DNA from: a virus
Reading direction: 5' to 3' (one strand)
IMG/VR virus record: IMGVR_UViG_3300045988_070243
Length of the DNA: 33,290 nt
The notes below the pieces were generated by a model. It searched no databases and was not told the origin of the DNA. It saw only the letters and a program-made list of their open reading frames with translations. Below are positions 1 through 33,290 of the stretch, piece by piece (the first letter of the stretch is position 1; the number at the start of each line of letters is the position of its first letter). The position numbers and the translations under genes are program-made.

Positions 1-99
1 GTTTTTTTTAAAAGAAAAGAGGTCACCAAGACATTAAACTGGAGATAACCGTGAACAAGTAAGAACGTAGATTTGTATTAACGTATAAAACGAAGCGAA
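1..99. repeat. Terminal direct repeat, left copy (identical to 33192..33290). Indicates a circular or terminally redundant genome of 33,191 bp.
   Basis: Bases 1..99 (GTTTTTTTTAAAAGAAAAGAGGTCACC...ACGAAGCGAA) recur base for base at 33192..33290, read directly from the sequence. Confidence 0.95.
68..75 (+). promoter_or_regulatory. Candidate -7 box TAGATTTG (TAnnTTTG type) upstream of the ORF starting at 102
   Basis: Matches TAnnTTTG exactly and lies 27 nt upstream of ATG 102. Confidence 0.35.
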
Positions 100-2641: not shown

Positions 2642-2950
2642 ATGAAAAGTAACAACGGTATTTTAACGGAGAAAGAGATTCAAGAAAGAACCGAGTTTTG
2701 GAATGAAAAGCAATTCCGTACCTGGAGCAAGAAAGAACTCGAAAGAACCTCTAAAGACATGCAAAATCTTTTGGTAGCTATAAAGGGATTCAGCGCGGAC
2801 GAGATTAAAGCCATCAAAAAGTTAAATAGATATGCCTTTGGAACATGCTACAAAAATGACCCGAAGTTTATCATATGGATGGCAGACCAAAGAGACTTAG
2901 ACTATGCTATTTCAATAGCACCAAAGACTTTTAAAGTTAAACAAGGTTAA
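2642..2950 (+). CDS. Hypothetical early protein (102 aa)
   Basis: ORF directly downstream of promoter cassette 2. No domain recognised. Confidence 0.65.
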   Translation: MKSNNGILTEKEIQERTEFWNEKQFRTWSKKELERTSKDMQNLLVAIKGFSADEIKAIKKLNRYAFGTCYKNDPKFIIWMADQRDLDYAISIAPKTFKVKQG

Positions 2951-3005
2951 CAGAGTAAACAACCTATTGGTTTATTTGTTATCTTCGCATCATCAAATTA
3001 AAAAC
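2946..3005 (+). promoter_or_regulatory. Early promoter cassette copy 3 (variant): GTTAAC - AAACAACCTATTG - TATCTTCG (2980..2987) - CAAATTAAAAAC
   Basis: Shares ACAACCTAT..TATTTG..TATCTTCGCA with the copies at 9598..9673 and 33064..33105. Its -7 box is one mismatch from TAnnTTTG. Confidence 0.4.
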
Positions 3006-3050
3006 GGAACGCCCGAACCGATTAGAGGGCAAAAACAAAAATTGTAGAAT

Positions 3051-4871: not shown

Positions 4872-5057
4872 ATGAAAGTTACAACGAAGTATTTTATAGA
4901 CTATGTGTATGACCAACCGAGTGGAGCTAATTATTATCACACATTAGTGAGAACCCGAGACAATGCGATATTGTTTAGCAACCCTAATTTGCAATTGGCT
5001 ATTGATTACGTGAAAGAGATTCAAGGCATTAACTCAAAAGACTTATGCATATTATGA
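4872..5057 (+). CDS. Hypothetical protein (61 aa)
   Basis: ORF downstream of the TACCTTTG box. Its TGA overlaps an in-frame ATG of the polymerase ORF (ATGA at 5054..5057). Confidence 0.5.
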   Translation: MKVTTKYFIDYVYDQPSGANYYHTLVRTRDNAILFSNPNLQLAIDYVKEIQGINSKDLCIL

Positions 5058-7076: not shown

Positions 7077-9512
7077 ATGGATTTACGAAAAATGGTTTTT
7101 AAAATTGCTACAGCAAGCAGCGCAAAATCTACTTCATGGAAAAACCGCTCTTACTCATGGGACGAGTTGACCGAGAAGCTGGCAAGGGCAAAGGTTACGG
7201 ATGAGACGTACCGGGAGTTTATAAGCGCGAGCAAAGCCGAGCAGGGTAATATTAAAGACGTAGGCGCATTCATGGGCGGCGAGTTATTAGGCAGCCGTAG
7301 AAACAAAAACAATGTCGGGGAACGCTCTATTTTGGCGCTCGATATTGACTACGGCGAAAAGAACTTCCCCGAGGCATTCTACTCGGTTATTAATTGCGCA
7401 TGTATCATTCACGGGACGCACAAGCATAACCCGAAGGCAAATACACTTCGATACCGTGTTATCATTCCGTTGTCCGAACCAGTGGACGGGGAACAATACG
7501 AGGCTATTGCCCGAAAGGTTGCGGAGTTAACGGGTATCGACTTGTATGACAGAACGACGTTTCAACCCGAGCGCTGCATGTTTTTCCCGTCGGTTTCCCG
7601 GGATGTAGACTATGAGTTTACAGATTATTCAGCGTTTAACGAAAACCCTTTGGACGTGCAAAAGTATCTGGGCATGTACGACGATTGGAGAGATACTACC
7701 GAATGGGCATACCACAAGGACGAGAAGGGCGAAGCCCGGACGCTTGCTAAAGAACAGCAAGACCCCACACTAAAGGAGGGCATTGTAGGAGACTTTTGCC
7801 GGGCATACACGATTAGCGAGGTTATCGCGGAATACCTATCGGACGTTTACGAGCCTACCGAGCAGGAGGATAGATGGACGTATACGGGAGGGTCAACTTC
7901 GGGCGGCATGATTACCTTCAATGATATGTTTGCCTATTCATTCCATAACAACGACCCGATACAAGGCAACCACGTGTTTAACGCCTACGACCTTGTGCGT
8001 GTACACAAGTTCGGTAAGCTGGATAAGGGCACGGATAGGAAGAACTCCACCGAGGCTATGAACGAACTGGTAAACAAGGACGCGAAGGTAGCCGCGGCAC
8101 GTGCCCGAATGTTGGCGGTTAAGGCTGGCGAAATAATGGACGATTTCGACGATGTAATAGAAGTAGAGGAAGCGACAGACGCCGACGTGGCGACAACGTA
8201 TGAGGACGCTATGGCGAAGTTGGAAACCGATAAGCGCGGCGCTTACCTACCATCCGCGAAGAATTTGGGCCTAATCATGAAGTATGACCCGAATTTAAAG
8301 GGGCTTATCGCTCGCGACCTATTTAAAGAACGCCGGGTTGTTACTCGTGTCCCCCTATGGCGCGCAAAGGATAGTTCTTTGGACTTCCAGGATGTGGACT
8401 ACTCGGGAGTACGTAAACACATCGAAGACGTTTACGGCATATCGAATAGCGCAAAGATTGACGATGCTATAGCACTATCCGCGGAAATGAATTCATTCCA
8501 CCCCGTGCAGGAATACCTAACCAAATTGAAATGGGACGGTATCGAAAGAGTTGATAGGGCTTTAATTCACATCATGGGAGCGGAAGATAACATATACACC
8601 CGAGAGGCATTCCGTATCATGATGGTGGGCGCGGTTAAGCGTATATTCCAAAAGGGCTGCAAGTTCGACAGCATGTTAGTGTTACAGTCCGAGCAGGGCG
8701 CAGGAAAAAGCACATTCATCCGAAAGCTGGGTAAACACTGGTTCTCTGATAGCCTTTCAAGCATGGACGGTAAGGGCGCGTTTGAACAATTGCAGGGTAA
8801 CTGGATATTGGAGGTTGCCGAGTTGTCAGCAATGAGACGTTCAGAAGTTGAGGGCGTTAAAAATTTCATCTCCAAAACAGAGGACAGCTACAGACCAGCA
8901 TACGGGCGTGTCACTAAGAACTTTCCCAGGCAGTGTATCTTTATAGGTACGACGAACAGGGACGAATTTCTAAAGGACGATACGGGTGGCAGGCGCTTTT
9001 TGCCCGTGAAGGTCAAGGCAAACGCTAATACGCACCTTATCTTTGAGAAGAGTTTCGACGATTACGTAGACCAGCTATGGGCTGAAGCCGTGCAGATGTA
9101 TTTCTGCAAAGTAAGTACATTGCTATCTCGTGAAGCCGAGGAAATCGCCGAGAAAGGACGGGAAGAGCATTTCGAGGCAGACCCCCGTACCGCATCAGTA
9201 GAGGCGTATTTGAATATGCGCGTGCCTACAGACTGGAGACGAATGTTTGTGAACGAAAGGCGCATGTACTTTAGAGAGTACGACGCATCAAAGATAGACC
9301 CGGAAGATTTTACACTGGAAAAGATGGACTTCGTATCTATTATGCAAATAGCTACAGATGTGTTCGAGATGGAAGTAGGGCGCGTAACAACTAAGGAGAG
9401 CCGCGAGATAGCCGCTATCATGTCTAAGGTACAAGGGTGGCAACGCGCAGCGAATGGCAAAACCGTCGCAGGTATCGGACGCGTACGAGGGTTTGAGCGT
9501 ATTGTTAATTAG
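7077..9512 (+). CDS. Primase-polymerase / VirE (P4-D5 type) helicase fusion
   Basis: N-terminal prim-pol-like acidic motif ILALDIDYG plus HGTHKH. C-terminal P-loop LVLQSEQGAGKSTFIRKLG with Walker B-like ILEVAEL. Size and position match VirE-family replicative primase-helicases in DUF2800/DUF2815 modules. Confidence 0.8.
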   Translation: MDLRKMVFKIATASSAKSTSWKNRSYSWDELTEKLARAKVTDETYREFISASKAEQGNIKDVGAFMGGELLGSRRNKNNVGERSILALDIDYGEKNFPEAFYSVINCACIIHGTHKHNPKANTLRYRVIIPLSEPVDGEQYEAIARKVAELTGIDLYDRTTFQPERCMFFPSVSRDVDYEFTDYSAFNENPLDVQKYLGMYDDWRDTTEWAYHKDEKGEARTLAKEQQDPTLKEGIVGDFCRAYTISEVIAEYLSDVYEPTEQEDRWTYTGGSTSGGMITFNDMFAYSFHNNDPIQGNHVFNAYDLVRVHKFGKLDKGTDRKNSTEAMNELVNKDAKVAAARARMLAVKAGEIMDDFDDVIEVEEATDADVATTYEDAMAKLETDKRGAYLPSAKNLGLIMKYDPNLKGLIARDLFKERRVVTRVPLWRAKDSSLDFQDVDYSGVRKHIEDVYGISNSAKIDDAIALSAEMNSFHPVQEYLTKLKWDGIERVDRALIHIMGAEDNIYTREAFRIMMVGAVKRIFQKGCKFDSMLVLQSEQGAGKSTFIRKLGKHWFSDSLSSMDGKGAFEQLQGNWILEVAELSAMRRSEVEGVKNFISKTEDSYRPAYGRVTKNFPRQCIFIGTTNRDEFLKDDTGGRRFLPVKVKANANTHLIFEKSFDDYVDQLWAEAVQMYFCKVSTLLSREAEEIAEKGREEHFEADPRTASVEAYLNMRVPTDWRRMFVNERRMYFREYDASKIDPEDFTLEKMDFVSIMQIATDVFEMEVGRVTTKESREIAAIMSKVQGWQRAANGKTVAGIGRVRGFERIVN

Positions 9513-9597
9513 TGATAACAGAGAGGGGGTGTAAAAGCCCCCAAATGTTAACCAACTGTTAACAGAATAACTAAATGAAATTTATTTCTTAAATGGC

Positions 9598-9673
9598 GTT
9601 AACAGAATATACAACCTATCGTTATTTGCCGTATGTTTGTAATGTCAAAAGGAAATAATAACAATTTAAAAAC
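9598..9673 (+). promoter_or_regulatory. Early promoter cassette copy 4 (variant): GTTAACAGAATA - ACAACCTATCG - TATGTTTG (9632..9639) - AATGTCAAAAGGAAA - CAATTTAAAAAC
   Basis: About 55 nt closely similar to 33064..33110. Exact TAnnTTTG box. GTTAACAGAATA also occurs at 9558..9569. Confidence 0.5.
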
Positions 9674-9675
9674 AA

Positions 9676-10092
9676 ATGATTATGAAAAAGTTAGTAGTAT
9701 TAGCAGTGTTAATTCTTACAAGTGTATCAATGTTTTCACAGATTACAAGTCAAGGTAAGCCCTATGTATTAAAGTCCTTCCGCATGGGCGTTTGCAAATT
9801 GGTTGATACCAATGGGGAAATAACCATCGAGGCGATAACGCGCGAGACCGAAAGGTATATTATGAAAGTCTATTTAGGTACACCCGAGGAAGCCGCCGTA
9901 ACGCTTGCAAGCCTTGCAGAATACAAGCCCGGTAAGGGCGAGACGGTCAACCTAAACAACCCGAGCAACAACGAAGCGTATTTCCAAAAGCTTACTGGCT
10001 CCTGGATAATCACGGAGAAGTTAACGGAGGTTTTCAGTATCGCCCTGAGCCGTGGGGAGCTTAGGAAAATGGTCGAAGCATTGGAAAATTAA
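9676..10092 (+). CDS. Secreted/exported hypothetical protein (N-terminal signal peptide)
   Basis: MIMKKLVVLAVLILTSVSMFSQ has a basic n-region, a hydrophobic core and a small-residue cleavage region. There is no lipobox Cys. Confidence 0.65.
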   Translation: MIMKKLVVLAVLILTSVSMFSQITSQGKPYVLKSFRMGVCKLVDTNGEITIEAITRETERYIMKVYLGTPEEAAVTLASLAEYKPGKGETVNLNNPSNNEAYFQKLTGSWIITEKLTEVFSIALSRGELRKMVEALEN

Positions 10093-10131
10093 AGAAGTGT
10101 TTTTGTATATACAATTTTAAAAAGAAAAATT

Positions 10132-10332
10132 ATGAAAAGTGGAAATTTTATTGAACTAGCGTTCGTAGTTAAGGGTGAATTGCAAGTAGAGTTTATTAAC
10201 GTTGAACACGTATCGCGCATTATGTACGTAGATGGCAAACCGTTTATCGGTATGCTGGGGCAGACCTACACGCGCCAACTTACAGAAACGAGCATGCAGG
10301 AGCTAATGAACGTTATTAACCTGGAGGACTAA
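10132..10332 (+). CDS. Hypothetical small acidic protein (66 aa)
   Basis: ORF preceded by ACAATTTTAAAAAG leader motif 8 nt upstream of the ATG. Confidence 0.55.
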   Translation: MKSGNFIELAFVVKGELQVEFINVEHVSRIMYVDGKPFIGMLGQTYTRQLTETSMQELMNVINLED

Positions 10333-11416: not shown

Positions 11417-11735
11417 AAAAGATTTAGAGCGTACATTCTCCGAGAAGCTTAACCGAACAAAAAAAGTGTGGGTAATAAAACTATTATCCACCTTTATAAA
11501 AGGTTTGCCGGATAGAATGATACTTTGCCAGGGCGGGTATGTAGGCTTCGCCGAGATAAAGACCACGGGTAAGAAACCAACCAAGATACAACTACTGATA
11601 CACAGCAAGTTGGAGGCTTTAGGCTTCAAAGTATTTATTATCGACGACTTGGAAAGCAGGGACGCAGCAATAAGTTTCTTCTTAAGAAATGTTAAGGAAA
11701 TAAACAGCGTACCGGGAAAAGGGTTATCCTTGTAG
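11397..11735 (+). CDS. VRR-NUC domain nuclease (PD-(D/E)XK)
   Basis: GLPDRMILCQGGYVGFAEIKTTGKKPTKIQ gives the D...E-x-K...Q arrangement of VRR-NUC. Small size and position next to the SNF2 helicase are typical of this replication module. Confidence 0.7.
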   Translation: MKEIISEKDLERTFSEKLNRTKKVWVIKLLSTFIKGLPDRMILCQGGYVGFAEIKTTGKKPTKIQLLIHSKLEALGFKVFIIDDLESRDAAISFFLRNVKEINSVPGKGLSL

Positions 11736-11758
11736 CATCAAATTAAAAAACAGAAATC

Positions 11759-12001
11759 GTGAAAAAGAGAAGTTTAAAAGAAGAAATCGAATACCGTTTA
11801 GGTATGTACTTTGGTATTAAGTCGGGCGCGCTGTATGTCCGTGATGATAAGTTCGGTAACACCGAGGAAATTCTAAAGCAGCTCCAGCAGGATATTACCC
11901 GTGATGTTAATTTCCTCTCGCGTAAAACACTGGGGTACGTATCGGATGAGCAGGATTTCAAAAGCATTTGTGTATTCTATAAAACAAAATTAATGGAGTA
12001 A
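11759..12001 (+). CDS. Hypothetical protein (80 aa, GTG start)
   Basis: GTG lies 9 nt after the CAAATTAAAAAACAG leader motif. Ends at TAATAA. Confidence 0.5.
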   Translation: MKKRSLKEEIEYRLGMYFGIKSGALYVRDDKFGNTEEILKQLQQDITRDVNFLSRKTLGYVSDEQDFKSICVFYKTKLME

Positions 12002-13567: not shown

Positions 13568-13719
13568 AAAAGTTAATAGCAGTTATCGCAGTCCTACTCT
13601 TGCTGGTAGGCTGCACCGTAGTACAGAACGTGGCGGACAGCATACAGCGTAATTTCAAGCTACAGCAATTAGAGTACGGGCTATCGCTGAAAGATAGTTT
13701 AATGCTTAAATGGTGTTAA
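13564..13719 (+). CDS. Small lipoprotein (51 aa, below the ORF-track cutoff)
   Basis: MKKLIAVIAVLLLLVGC has a signal sequence plus lipobox L-V-G-C. ATGA overlap with the SNF2 stop. Ends at TAA 13717..13719 inside the GTTAAC of promoter cassette 5. Confidence 0.55.
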   Translation: MKKLIAVIAVLLLLVGCTVVQNVADSIQRNFKLQQLEYGLSLKDSLMLKWC

Positions 13720-13773
13720 CGAAAGAACCAACGTAACGGGAAAGCGTTACATTTGTATCAACGATTTAAAAAC
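13715..13773 (+). promoter_or_regulatory. Early promoter cassette copy 5: GTTAAC - GAACCAAC - TACATTTG (13748..13755) - CGATTTAAAAAC
   Basis: Block-for-block similar to copies 1 and 2. Lies 27 nt upstream of ATG 13782. Confidence 0.55.
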
Positions 13774-13781
13774 AGAAGATT

Positions 13782-14204
13782 ATGATTAGAAACAAAGATT
13801 TTGCGATGCTGTACGCAGGGCGTGGGGTATTCAGCAAGAACGGTGAGTTTGCAGGTGTGGTAGTCGGTTGGAACGACATGCACGGTGTGATAATGGGGGT
13901 TGACCACACGGACGGATGGCAGAACTGGGGCGCCAACGATATAGGCGTGTCCGAGGATGAGTTTCTGTCGTACGAATACCGCAACGCCGGGATGCTGGAG
14001 GAGCCGACCGGGATGCCGGTAGAGGAAGCCCCGAAGCATAAGACGATAGGCGAGCTTATCGAGGAGCACGAAGGCGTGCAAGGTATCCAATTCTCTACGG
14101 ACGAGCACGGCAATGTACAGGCCGCCTATATCCGGGGCAAGCACGGAGGTATGAAGCTCATGAGCATGGGAGACGGTTTGGAGAATGTATCATCAAAAAT
14201 TTAA
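13782..14204 (+). CDS. Hypothetical protein (140 aa)
   Basis: ORF directly downstream of promoter cassette 5. No domain recognised. Confidence 0.65.
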   Translation: MIRNKDFAMLYAGRGVFSKNGEFAGVVVGWNDMHGVIMGVDHTDGWQNWGANDIGVSEDEFLSYEYRNAGMLEEPTGMPVEEAPKHKTIGELIEEHEGVQGIQFSTDEHGNVQAAYIRGKHGGMKLMSMGDGLENVSSKI

Positions 14205-15024: not shown

Positions 15025-15105
15025 TGAAAGCGGTTCGCCTATAGGAGTTAGCAGTATGATAGTGCCCTCTACGAAAGCCTATAGGCAAACCAAATGATAG
15101 CAATT

Positions 15106-15150
15106 AGCCCAGATCTGATTACAAAATGTCAGATTTGGGCTTTTGTTTAT
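15106..15150 (+). terminator. Rho-independent terminator closing the early block
   Basis: 13-bp stem AGCCCAGATCTGA (15106..15118) / TCAGATTTGGGCT (15129..15141, one G-U pair) followed by TTTGTTTAT. Confidence 0.75.
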
Positions 15151-15189
15151 AATTAGAAAAAGGAGGCTCTAAAATTAACATATTTTATG

Positions 15190-15395
15190 CACAGCTGCAC
15201 AGTAAAAAATCGCTACTGTGCAGGTCTCTGTGCAGTCTAACTCCTTATATTATAATATGTTATATGTAAATACACAGATGCACAGTAAAAAGGGGGTAAA
15301 ACATTATTTTGGAGAAAAGTGTATTTTAGGGGGTATAAAATATACTATATTCTATATTAAAGTTTAGAAAAAAAGGTGCGTGTCTGTGCAGGTGC
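15190..15395 (+). repeat. Noncoding junction element, copy A (related to 32751..32970): five CTGTGCAG/CTGCACAG 8-mers plus an AT-rich core
   Basis: Blocks shared with copy B: 15216..15257, 15260..15271, 15281..15318 (38 nt perfect), 15352..15370 (19 nt perfect), 15374..15391. 8-mers at 15195, 15216, 15228, 15278 (ATGCACAG) and 15384. Confidence 0.9.
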
Positions 15396-15524
15396 CTGCA
15401 ACGTTCAGTGAGATAGGTAGTTACAGTGTACACATACAAAATATTGTAAATATAATTCATTTGTAAACTTTATTTGTAGAAAATGCCTAACTGGCCGTTG
15501 GTTGGTCTGATGCGATTTGTTGCC

Positions 15525-15532
15525 TACCTTTG
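15525..15532 (+). promoter_or_regulatory. -7 box TACCTTTG, candidate late promoter upstream of terS
   Basis: Exact TAnnTTTG, the same octamer as at 4826 and 17270. It would give a ~120-nt leader before ATG 15661. Confidence 0.45.
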
Positions 15533-15660
15533 TGCCATAATTGGAAAGAACCAAAGCAGTTAATTCGAACTACGCGGTGTCGTCCGAATACTACTTGTGC
15601 ATCTCTTTAAGAGACCGCGAGCACACACGCGCGATACCTTAAATACCAAATAACAAAAAT

Positions 15661-16568: not shown

Positions 16569-17234
16569 ATGAGAGGATTTGATATCAAGCAAATACCCAT
16601 GCGGCCGTTCCAAATATCGGGACTGACCGCTAAATGGGGTATCGGCGGTAGTCGCAAGCCCTCTATATGGGATGCCAACTTAATAGGCAGGTGGGATGCA
16701 CGTACATTCCCGGACGGCGAATTAGCCACGATACCCAATACCGCTACAATGGAAGGTAAATCCCCCGACATTACCGTAGAGGGCGCAACGATGAAAAAGG
16801 GTACATTACAGTTCGACGGTGTGGACGATGGGGCACGTACAAGCAGGTTCTTGTTTCCCGAAAGGTTCACCGTCTTTTGGGATATAGATTGGCTGGGTAC
16901 GATAGACACTAGTGCTGGAGTAATTCACGGGACGAACCTCATTATGTACAATCTCAAAGCCACTGAATCCTTGCTCACCTATATTCGGAGTGCTCCAGGA
17001 AAAATACCTAACACCCGCGTAGGAGTATCAACGAACGGCAAGGTGTACGCCAAAGACGGTAGTGTTACTCCGTTTGGCGGCACAGTAGGTACGGGTGCTA
17101 AAGCAGACGAATTATATATTGCACAGAGAAACACAGCGTTTACCCAAATGGGCTTCCGCCAGCTACTAATATTCAACAAGGAGCTTTCACAAGACGAGGT
17201 TAACGACGTGTTACGCGCCATGTTCCCGGCTTAA
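16569..17234 (+). CDS. LamG-like (concanavalin A-like lectin/glucanase fold) domain protein
   Basis: GTLQFDGVDDGARTS...FTVFWDIDW, NGKVYAKDG and the C-terminal LYIAQRNTAFTQMGFRQLLIFNKELSQDEVNDV match the Laminin_G_3 pattern (FDG.dd, ftvsaW, lyvnG, f.G.id.vriynraLs..Ei). Confidence 0.6.
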   Translation: MRGFDIKQIPMRPFQISGLTAKWGIGGSRKPSIWDANLIGRWDARTFPDGELATIPNTATMEGKSPDITVEGATMKKGTLQFDGVDDGARTSRFLFPERFTVFWDIDWLGTIDTSAGVIHGTNLIMYNLKATESLLTYIRSAPGKIPNTRVGVSTNGKVYAKDGSVTPFGGTVGTGAKADELYIAQRNTAFTQMGFRQLLIFNKELSQDEVNDVLRAMFPA

Positions 17235-17298: not shown

Positions 17299-18444
17299 AT
17301 GAACGTTACATTTACTTTTGAAAAGATACTGGCGGCTTTCGTAGACCCGAAGATACGCGGAGTAGCCTCTAAAGGCGGTACACGTAGCGGCAAGACATGG
17401 GCAACCCTACAGATGTTACACATACTTGCATTGAACAACCCGCAACCGCTCGTTATCTCGTGCGTAGCGGCTACGTTCCCTATGGTGAAACGCGGTATGC
17501 TCCGAGACTTTAAAGCTATGGTGGTAGCCGAGGGCTACTGGGACGAGAACAAGTTTAATAAAACGGAAAGTACATACGAATACCCGAACGGCACGATAAT
17601 AGAGTTCTTCTCGTGTGATAACGCCGGGAAGGTGCACGGCCCTGCACGTGATATTCTGTTCGTCAACGAGGCCCAGGGCATACCCCGGGAAATCTTTAGG
17701 CAGCTTGATATCAGAACAAGGAAGAAAGTTATTATAGACTATAACCCCGTGCGTAAGTTCTGGGGCGAAACGGAGTTCGTAGGTGACAGATACGTTACCG
17801 TACATTCAACGTACAAGGATAACCCGTACTTGACCCCCGAACAAGTGGCAGCCATCGAGAAGAACAAGAACGATGCTAACTGGTGGCGCGTGTACGGTGA
17901 GGGCTTGACGGGCGGCGTAGAGGGTAACGTTTACCCCGAATATGAGGTTATTGACGATATGCCCGAGACGTTTACGGGCAGGTGCCTGGGGCTTGACTTT
18001 GGTTTCGTGAATGACCCTACCGCGATAGTCGATATACGCATGGAGGGCTGGGATTTGTTCGTGGACTTGCTTTGCTATGAACAAGGCTTGCTAAATAGCC
18101 ATATAGCGGACTACTTGAACGCTAATGCACTGAACCGCGTTGTAACGGTGTGTGACAGTGCGGAGCAAAAGAGCATCGTGGAGCTACAGCAGAAGCATAT
18201 CAAAGCGATACCGTGTGTCAAGGGACGCGGCTCTGTGGCGGCTGGTATTGCACAGGTCAAGCAGTTCAAGTTGCACGTAACAAAGCGTTCGGTCAAGCTG
18301 CTTGACGAGTTGGATAACTACAAATGGATTAAGGACGAGGTATCGGACACATACACCAACGAAGCCATAGACGCGTGGAACCACGCACTCGACGCTCTCC
18401 GTTACGGTGTGGACTTCTTGATACGTAAATACAGACCCAAATAA
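17299..18444 (+). CDS. terL: Terminase large subunit (compact PBSX/Terminase_3-like)
   Basis: Walker A SKGGTRSGKTWA, Walker B-like DILFVNEAQ. Nuclease-domain acidic motifs GLDFGFVNDPTAIV, VCDSAEQKSI, HALDALRYG. Confidence 0.85.
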   Translation: MNVTFTFEKILAAFVDPKIRGVASKGGTRSGKTWATLQMLHILALNNPQPLVISCVAATFPMVKRGMLRDFKAMVVAEGYWDENKFNKTESTYEYPNGTIIEFFSCDNAGKVHGPARDILFVNEAQGIPREIFRQLDIRTRKKVIIDYNPVRKFWGETEFVGDRYVTVHSTYKDNPYLTPEQVAAIEKNKNDANWWRVYGEGLTGGVEGNVYPEYEVIDDMPETFTGRCLGLDFGFVNDPTAIVDIRMEGWDLFVDLLCYEQGLLNSHIADYLNANALNRVVTVCDSAEQKSIVELQQKHIKAIPCVKGRGSVAAGIAQVKQFKLHVTKRSVKLLDELDNYKWIKDEVSDTYTNEAIDAWNHALDALRYGVDFLIRKYRPK

Positions 18445-32696: not shown

Positions 32697-32702
32697 TTAG
32701 GA

Positions 32703-32735
32703 AATGGAGGGCTGTTAACAGTTCTCCATTTTTTG
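32703..32735 (+). terminator. Rho-independent terminator closing the late block
   Basis: AATGGAGGGCTGTT / AACAGTTCTCCATT inverted repeat (two G-U pairs, centred on GTTAAC) followed by TTTTT. Confidence 0.7.
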
Positions 32736-32750
32736 TTAACATTCTTTAGA

Positions 32751-32970
32751 CACAGTCTGCACAGTAGAAAAGTAGGTCTGTGCAGGTCTCTTGTGCAGTC
32801 TAACTCCTTATATTATAATACATTATATGTAAATGCACAGTAAACACAGTAAAAAGGGGGTAAAACATTATTTTGGAGAAAATACCATTTACCACTATAG
32901 AACGAGCTGTAAAAACCGCTATATCCTATATTAAAGTTTAGAAATTTAGGTGCGTTTCTGTGCTGTGCAG
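32751..32970 (+). repeat. Noncoding junction element, copy B (related to 15190..15395)
   Basis: Blocks shared with copy A: 32778..32820, 32823..32834, 32845..32882 (38 nt perfect), 32926..32944 (19 nt perfect), 32948..32970. 8-mers at 32757, 32778, 32791 (TTGTGCAG), 32833 (ATGCACAG) and 32963. Confidence 0.9.
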
Positions 32971-33063
32971 GATAAGGCACTGATAAATAGCACTTTAGAT
33001 TGTACACACTGTTCATTTACATCTTTTCACTTTTGATTAAGGTTTATTAGCACAAAAAAGAGA

Positions 33064-33105
33064 TACAACCTATTGATATTTGCTGTATCTTCGCAATGTC
33101 AAAAG
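33064..33105 (+). promoter_or_regulatory. Early promoter cassette copy 6 (variant): ACAACCTATTG - ATATTTG - TATCTTCG (33086..33093) - AATGTCAAAAGGAAA
   Basis: Closely similar to 9611..9656, and to 2960..2990 in its upstream part. Likely the first early promoter after the late terminator. Confidence 0.4.
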
Positions 33106-33191
33106 GAAACAAGGTTGTTCTTTACTGAAACTAAGAACACGATACCCGAAAGGGAAAGTTTGGAAAGTGAAAGGGATCCAAACACCGAATA

Positions 33192-33290
33192 GTTTTTTTT
33201 AAAAGAAAAGAGGTCACCAAGACATTAAACTGGAGATAACCGTGAACAAGTAAGAACGTAGATTTGTATTAACGTATAAAACGAAGCGAA
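33192..33290. repeat. Terminal direct repeat, right copy (identical to 1..99)
   Basis: Same 99-nt string as 1..99. The window ends exactly where the identity ends, as expected for an assembler overlap or terminal redundancy. Confidence 0.95.

Follow-up and report, generated by a model that had tools for sequence, protein, structure and literature searches.

Two origin-like iteron repeats in a circular Bacteroides phage genome and a primase-helicase whose wing varies with them

Why does a phage genome with all of its long genes on one strand carry nearly the same noncoding element at two distant junctions? The question is raised by IMG/VR virus record IMGVR_UViG_3300045988_070243, a stretch of 33,290 nucleotides (hereafter the window) that represents a circular assembly of about 33.2 kb, its positions 1–99 being identical to 33192–33290 in a self-comparison. 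The window is about 88% identical to virulent siphophages that infect Bacteroides uniformis (BU3-1, C2_18_80S2P, EMB1/EMB2 and the BU…P series). Circular permutation and headful (pac) packaging have been reported for EMB2, and both EMB1 and EMB2 form clear plaques (PMC9584325); an integrase is absent from the annotations of the relatives. Literature searches on these phages yielded genome announcements alone, and nothing on origins or transcription. The reading favoured here, with a probability of roughly 0.65, is that each junction is a replication origin of the Rep/iteron type known from Staphylococcus aureus pathogenicity islands (SaPIs), two per genome, and that both are read by an 811-aa protein encoded at 7077–9512, designated PriRep.

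Anatomy of the repeated element

The + strand holds all long open reading frames (ORFs) of the genome, and the ORF map agrees with an earlier note on this DNA in placing the two longest noncoding stretches at 15025–15660 and at 32697–33191 plus 1–101. Each of them is headed by a strong intrinsic terminator, as the note had stated (Table 1). An 8-mer that it described as shared by the two junctions, CTGTGCAG, occurs eight times in the genome against 0.41 expected, with seven of the eight occurrences inside the junctions. The enrichment at both places is therefore real, but the true unit is a direct repeat of about 230 bp (element A, 15175–15391; element B, 32737–32970) with about 81% identity between the copies. 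The spacing given for the elements also holds, at 17,562 and 15,629 bp. The two copies have the same orientation, so the description of the junctions as mirror-organised was wrong. A further shared motif, TGTACACA, is indeed found in both (15426–15433 and 33001–33008) but is not conserved in relatives.

The heptamer TGCACAG occurs 13 times in the genome, compared with 2.6 expected. Each element contains 7–8 copies of TGCACAG/CTGTGCA (iterons), in both orientations, which surround the least stable AT-rich DNA of the genome; of the six least stable 30-mers genome-wide, four fall inside the two elements. From 5' to 3', the element consists of two forward TGCACAG, an A-rich spacer, two reverse CTGTGCA, CTAACTC and the AT-rich near-palindrome TATATTATAATATATTATATGTA, followed by two forward copies, a near-invariant 38-nt block, a variable stretch, a second AT-rich block and one or two reverse copies, the latter about 100 bp beyond the forward pair s5–s6. 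The palindromic AT block of the core is kept in 20 aligned element copies. The 38-nt block, CACAGTAAAAAGGGGGTAAAACATTATTTTGGAGAAAA, is nearly invariant in 20 element copies and has recognisable counterparts in phages of other iteron classes; it might serve as a primase start site, as a site for a host factor or as a weak promoter.

Iteron classes and the protein that follows them

Junctions in relatives were located through homologues of the small terminase subunit gene (terS) and of the last late gene; a sliding 6-mer scan missed degenerate motifs, such as those of the distant phage L010. About 100 further loci came from IMG/VR, which was scanned first with the conserved block and afterwards with the protein sequence of the primase-helicase. 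Conservation of the layout in related phages had been set beforehand as a test of the earlier note, and the outcome was positive: two copies occupy the same junctions in 13 of 13 isolated relatives, in about 50 metagenomic relatives and in distant syntenic Phocaeicola phages, where the two-copy repeat has a different motif. The group at 41% identity has a two-copy self-repeat about 17.7 kb apart, in a comparison that covered spacing only. Mean identity among copies is 0.87 for A with A, 0.83 for B with B and 0.81 for A with B of the same genome. Across phages the A copies group with A and the B copies with B, which implies that the duplication is old. Coupling between A and B within a genome is weak but significant (0.81 vs 0.775 across genomes, permutation p 2e-4). 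In the 20-copy alignment, A and B of one genome share sequence in patches, and several B copies have the A-type spacer GTAAAAAATC; such patchwise sharing suggests occasional gene conversion between the elements.

The close relatives could be sorted into four motif classes (TGCACAG, TACACAG, GACACAG and TGACCAG), while more distant syntenic phages have GGCACAG, GGAACA, GTGACA or GTAACA in the same element architecture at the same junctions. In all, the motif classes number at least eight, and within one genome every site in both copies belongs to the same class. The 3' core ACAG is mostly retained and the three bases 5' of it differ. Phage BU183P1 has TGACCAG or GCCCAG in place of TGCACAG at all sites of both copies; 9 of its 10 genomic TGACCAG lie in the elements, and none of its TGCACAG does. 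That 15 or more sites change in concert in each genome speaks for a sequence-specific reader coevolving with them.

The reader was sought by aligning all 44 proteins of the window across about 50 close relatives and testing their 2,291 variable columns against motif class; shared ancestry of the genomes, many of which derive from a single metagenome data set, makes the association statistics look more independent than they are. PriRep alone has columns that are diagnostic for two classes: all 8 TACACAG genomes have 789K/R plus 793D/E, which none of the 42 others has, and 794R marks all 4 TGACCAG genomes and none of the remaining 46. The top four of all columns by normalised mutual information are PriRep residues 793, 794, 796 and 789, with 0.71 for residue 793 compared with 0.41 for the best column outside PriRep. 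Physical linkage is not the cause of the covariation, since the elements are 5.7 and 7.4 kb away from the PriRep gene and nearer genes show no association. In the small terminase subunit (TerS), no column is diagnostic for any of the four motif classes, and none of about 24 well-sampled early proteins besides PriRep co-varies with motif class. Comparison of whole-protein identity revealed no protein uniquely divergent in the switched phage. A 140-aa protein (13782–14204) had been a weak lead owing to substitutions private to BU183P1 among 10 genomes, which was lost in the 50-genome test.

The locus L106 combines the C-terminal backbone of the GGCACAG group with the wing of the distant GGAACA phages (WVRSRR-RC-KAHGNVRGY, compared with WVRSRR-RS-KAYGNARGY in L010), and its iterons are GGAACA. 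L106 is thus in effect a natural swap, in which the wing follows the iteron class across protein backgrounds. Phages with GTAACA and GTGACA differ at one wing residue, T vs V, at WERS(T/V)R. The wing of PriRep is hypervariable in general, and that of L106 looks as if it had either been transplanted from a distant lineage with the same iteron or converged on it.

Sequence and fold comparisons place PriRep close to the initiators of SaPIs. Residues 481–698 contain a Pfam VapE-like domain (E 2e-79), and residues 393–731 match PDB 7PDS (SaPI1 Rep1, E 2e-81), the sole PDB sequence match of the protein; this entry is the Rep1-DNA complex of SaPI1 (PMC9371898). The AlphaFold model of residues 701–811 has a mean predicted local distance difference test score (pLDDT) of 94.3, and its significant Foldseek matches are chains of 7PDS only (E 2e-5, template-modelling (TM) score 0.77–0.85, 17% identity), followed by weaker matches to winged-helix DNA-binding domains. 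Neither Pfam nor NCBIfam gave a match for the N-terminus, which was therefore subjected to a fold search; the model of the N-terminal 400 residues (pLDDT 87) has the fold of archaeo-eukaryotic primase (AEP) primase-polymerases, with S-2L PrimPol (E 1.5e-5) and RepB' (E 7.6e-4) as matches. PriRep is predicted to be a primase-helicase-winged-helix fusion because of the helicase match, the C-terminal winged-helix model and the N-terminal AEP fold. The co-varying residues are located in a modelled strand-wing-strand hairpin directly after the long helix 772–784. The covariation points to this wing (residues 789–796) as the place where iteron specificity would be read.

Origins weighed against other explanations

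Under the favoured reading, PriRep would use the wing of its C-terminal winged-helix domain to bind the 7-nt iterons (TGCACAG), which flank the AT-rich core as oppositely oriented pairs. Bound PriRep would then melt the core and load itself as the replicative helicase, after which its own AEP primase domain would prime synthesis. The genome would carry two such origins in direct orientation, one after the terminator of the early block and the other after that of the late block. Binding, melting and initiation at the elements, as well as any division of labour between the copies, are steps that we infer from sequence and predicted structure. The earlier note had named paired replication origins first among its options, and this option is favoured now on account of the iteron and AT-rich anatomy and of the covariation of the iterons with the wing of a SaPI-Rep-like primase-helicase.

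SaPI Reps are self-loading helicases that also serve as initiators, and their C-terminal winged-helix domain binds iterons of 5–6 nt; a SaPI origin has 6–12 of these and a central AT-rich region, with at least two iterons per side in opposite directions (PMC9371898). The elements have 7–8 sites each, with s3–s4 and s5–s6 flanking the core, PriRep is homologous to SaPI Rep, and by covariation alone the iterons are cognate to its C-terminal domain. Several observations weigh on the other side. A SaPI has one origin, directly downstream of rep, whereas the elements lie 5.7 kb downstream and 7.4 kb upstream of the PriRep gene, and a motif scan directly downstream of that gene (9513–9675) found no iteron cluster. 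The 38-nt non-iteron block and the distal iterons s7–s8 have no SaPI counterpart. Covariation bears on the reading of the motif by PriRep and not on the start of replication there, it comes from related genomes whose association tests are not fully independent, and no diagnostic residue sets the GACACAG class apart from TGCACAG. GC skew, moreover, gives no origin signal. It is positive throughout the genome without any switch, which is expected because every gene is on one strand, and this likewise leaves the note's alternative of replication termini unsupported.

The covariation evidence also fits PriRep-binding arrays of which at least one is not an origin and acts instead as a fork barrier (for a shift from theta to rolling-circle replication), as a cis partner resembling crr of phage P4, in handcuffing, or in coupling replication to transcription. 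Each element is situated just upstream of an operon promoter, and for the oriR of phage SPP1 it has been proposed that binding of gp38 stalls forks and triggers the switch from theta to rolling-circle replication or concatemer synthesis (PMC6316719, PMC3485210). Nevertheless, in every genome examined the complete anatomy is preserved in A and B alike, AT-rich core included, which would be needless for a mere barrier, and an array of this kind is considered rather unlikely. The position upstream of operon promoters would also suit clusters of operators, like OL and OR of lambda, through which a phage transcription regulator controls the early and late operons with immunity-like specificity classes; clustered short inverted repeats at two places and a concerted specificity switch are found in lambdoid operators as well. 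This explanation is improbable, given that no well-sampled early protein but PriRep co-varies with the motif. The small early proteins that were scanned have no Pfam match, few matches to PHROG families (all of unknown function) and no recognised DNA-binding domain. Furthermore, the sites lie 115–135 bp upstream of the -7 boxes without overlap, six other early promoters are devoid of the motif, the relatives give clear plaques (PMC9584325) and have no annotated integrase, and the lambdoid combination of a repressor gene with promoter-overlapping operators was not found. A stage-specific promoter, which the earlier note had itself found hard to reconcile with the layout, is not supported either, as the promoters, which belong to two different types, lie 115–135 bp downstream of the elements.

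Short repeated motifs make up some pac sites, and element A lies just upstream of terS, in a group of phages where EMB2 is a reported headful packager (PMC9584325). That the elements are pac sites bound by TerS is highly improbable all the same: TerS lacks class-diagnostic columns, so it does not vary with the motif as the protein bound to a pac site should, the second copy is 17.6 kb from terS, and AT-rich, iteron-flanked anatomy is that of an origin. The length of the repeat (230 bp), its 38-nt identical block and the sharing of patches between A and B within genomes (p 2e-4) could also reflect a gene for a non-coding RNA or a small protein, or mere homology arms for recombination, all of which are most unlikely. 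An RNA gene finds little in its favour in the weak RNAalifold consensus (-13.6 kcal/mol over 250 columns, 20 copies), whose sole compensatory pairs are the iterons, so that the program cannot tell pairing from inverted binding sites; Rfam gave no match at the gathering score in the window, and under E-value thresholds the matches in either junction were at chance level only. Short ORFs of A and B do not correspond, as judged from the two copies in the window. Against homology arms, orthologous A copies (0.87) are more alike than A and B of one genome. Identity profiles against nine relatives place the mosaic breakpoints at about 4.0, 9.5–11, 12–13.5, 16.5, 21.5–22.5, 26.5–27.5 and 31 kb. They are thus scattered and away from the elements, and the coincidence for which the note had proposed to look is missing, as is support for its exchange of whole modules, given also that A groups with A and B with B.

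Since the two elements are direct repeats, recombination of one putative origin with the other would produce a pair of circles with one origin each. It is very improbable that these phages pass in this way through a temporary two-part genome, with a self-replicating early circle that carries PriRep and the polymerase and a late circle that rejoins it before headful packaging. A less radical version is a division of labour similar to that in SPP1, in which one origin could fire and the other stall forks.

Surrounding features and known systems

Table 1. Coordinates of the elements, genes and signals discussed in the text
Feature	Position	Strand	Remarks
Origin-like element A	15175..15391	+	repeat and motif matches; conserved in relatives
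Element A iterons, forward	s1 15188-15194, s2 15196-15202, s5 15271-15277 (TACACAG), s6 15279-15285	+	
Element A iterons, reverse	s3 15216-15222, s4 15228-15234, s7 15384-15390	-	
Element A AT-rich cores	15237-15270 and 15334-15364		the genome's least stable 30-mers begin at 15334 and 15244
Origin-like element B	32737..32970	+	direct repeat of 15175-15391; motif matches; kept in all relatives
Element B iterons, forward	s1 32749-32755 (GACACAG), s2 32758-32764, s5 32834-32840, s6 32843-32849 (AACACAG)	+	
Element B iterons, reverse	s3 32778-32784, s4 32791-32797 (TTGTGCA), s7 32958-32964, s8 32963-32969	-	
Element B AT-rich core, candidate DNA unwinding element	32800..32833		between reverse s3-s4 and forward s5-s6; among the six least stable 30-mers of the genome
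Near-invariant non-iteron block CACAGTAAAAAGGGGGTAAAACATTATTTTGGAGAAAA	32845..32882	+	38 nt, 100% identical to 15281-15318
PriRep-type initiator gene, 811 aa	7077..9512	+	predicted AEP primase fold ~1-360, VapE/SaPI-Rep-like helicase 393-731, C-terminal winged-helix domain 701-811
Strand-wing-strand hairpin codons, residues 788-798	9438..9470	+	stretch co-varying with iteron class
Intrinsic terminator closing early/middle block	15106..15150	+	14-pair stem and T-run; 15106-15141 plus T-run -25.1 kcal/mol, z -7.2
Intrinsic terminator closing late (lysis) operon	32698..32737	+	17-pair hairpin, then T-run; 32698-32735 -20.5 kcal/mol, z -6.3; palindrome detected
Early-type promoter	33063..33093	+	upstream box ATACAACC, -7 box candidates GATATTTG and TATCTTCG; 86% identical to promoter at 9609-9658
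Second -7 box TAGATTTG	68..75	+	just upstream of first early gene at 102; read from sequence
Conserved two-hairpin leader RNA	33114..33191	+	hairpin 1 33114-33147, hairpin 2 33158-33191
Late promoter -7 box TACCTTTG (15525-15532) and long terS-operon leader	15525..15660	+	box AGACCGCG, GC-rich palindrome
Early promoter family	338-443, 2557-2662, 2934-3019, 9581-9688, 10091-10152, 11679-11764, 13698-13802		GTTAAC, AACCAAC, TAnnTTTG, leader CAATTTAAAAA

Promoter boxes of the type TAnnTTTG, which the earlier note had placed before both operons, are exact in the late promoter and in the box at 68–75, but the one at 33086–33093, TATCTTCG, is imperfect; relatives have TATCTTTG or TATATTTG at the corresponding position. 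Its division of the genome into two single-strand transcription blocks stands insofar as all long ORFs are on the + strand. The early block, however, is not one simple transcription block, because it contains at least six internal promoters of one family. The boxes GTTAAC and AACCAAC of this family also occur at the early promoter of the distant Phocaeicola phages.

Downstream of the early-type promoter lies a two-hairpin RNA that is well supported by covariation. Across 19 diverse sequences, 97.8% of cells are paired, compared with 88.3% in shuffles and 38–48% in slid controls, and 10 of the 19 pairs have compensatory changes, a number reached by none of 500 shuffles. The RNA has no Rfam match. 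A second copy is present just after the PriRep gene in some relatives, where the window has the promoter only (9609–9658). It could act in cis as a leader or be a small RNA, and one idea, by analogy, is an antitermination RNA like put of phage HK022. A role in anti-termination, one of the options of the earlier note, is possible for this leader, which is distinct from the repeated element. In the late leader, the -7 box TAC(C/T)TTTG, the box AGACCGCG and the GC-rich palindrome are conserved in all groups of relatives, and a hypervariable tandem-repeat stretch separates the -7 box from AGACCGCG in some of them (L015, L105, L104 and L068 were examined). This leader upstream of terS could be a pac site or a late-control RNA.

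Several other genes of the window have unusual features. The first early gene contains an exact 40-bp tandem duplication (221–300) that shifts the frame, and the ORF ends at 272 (56 aa, compared with 74 aa in most relatives); the duplication could be real or an assembly artefact. The gene at 731–1384 has five tandem 24-bp repeats (1009–1128) that encode a lysine/alanine-rich octapeptide repeat. Two ORFs are accessory: a 61-aa ORF at 4872–5057 with a counterpart in none of nine relatives, and a 221-aa gene at 16569–17234, between terS and the large terminase subunit gene (terL), found in three of nine and annotated as LamG-like in BU3-1. Inserted genes interrupt terL, or split it, in some relatives.

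Replication origins of gut Bacteroidales phages are essentially unmapped, and the element and PriRep constitute a concrete, testable candidate for an origin/initiator pair in a phage family that is common in sewage and gut viromes. The eight or more natural specificity classes represent a ready-made set of orthogonal origin/initiator pairs, which could seed Bacteroides replicons or aid phage engineering, and they bear on whether close relatives keep their replication private in co-infection.

With respect to mechanism, the closest parallel is provided by the SaPIs. The initiators are homologous and share the C-terminal fold, primase and Rep are fused in SaPI5 (PMC9371898) as in PriRep, and in both systems short iterons flank an AT-rich centre and have a lineage-specific sequence matched to the C-terminal domain of the initiator (here by covariation). 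Nevertheless, a SaPI is a satellite in Gram-positive bacteria with one origin, which is directly downstream of rep and has iterons of 5–6 nt, whereas the present genome is that of a virulent Bacteroides siphophage with two putative origins, both several kilobases from the initiator gene (5.7 and 7.4 kb), and with iterons of 7–8 nt. The additional distal iteron pair about 100 bp away, the near-invariant 38-nt non-iteron block and the AEP fold of the primase domain are further listed as differences.

Phage P4 offers a second parallel, since its alpha protein is a multidomain primase-helicase with a C-terminal winged-helix domain that recognises short repeats at two loci (ori and crr) of a small genome. 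One such protein and short repeats at two separate loci are also what the window contains; however, crr is an accessory cis element and not a copy of ori, whereas here there are two copies of one element, and no P4 alpha structure was among the fold matches of the C-terminal domain of PriRep. The lambdoid operators OL and OR resemble the elements in having two clusters of short sites and a concerted specificity switch between relatives, and differ in that here no repressor candidate was found, the sites are off the promoters and the co-varying protein is a putative replication initiator. In organisation, the nearest analogue is SPP1, another pac-type siphophage with one-strand transcription. 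Its oriL and oriR are similarly built, about 13 kb apart and bound by one protein, gp38, and a long intergenic stretch with transcription signals on both sides holds oriR (PMC6316719); two distant, similar regions with repeats and an AT-rich unwinding element are likewise present here. The analogy is organisational only: oriL lies inside gene 38, and gp38 binds the origin but depends on a separate loader and a DnaB-type helicase, in contrast to PriRep, which its match to SaPI Rep predicts to be a self-loading primase-helicase. The annotations of the relatives include no DnaB-type helicase. The conserved layout with two putative origins raises the question posed by SPP1 oriR, namely what purpose a second origin serves, in a second, unrelated system.

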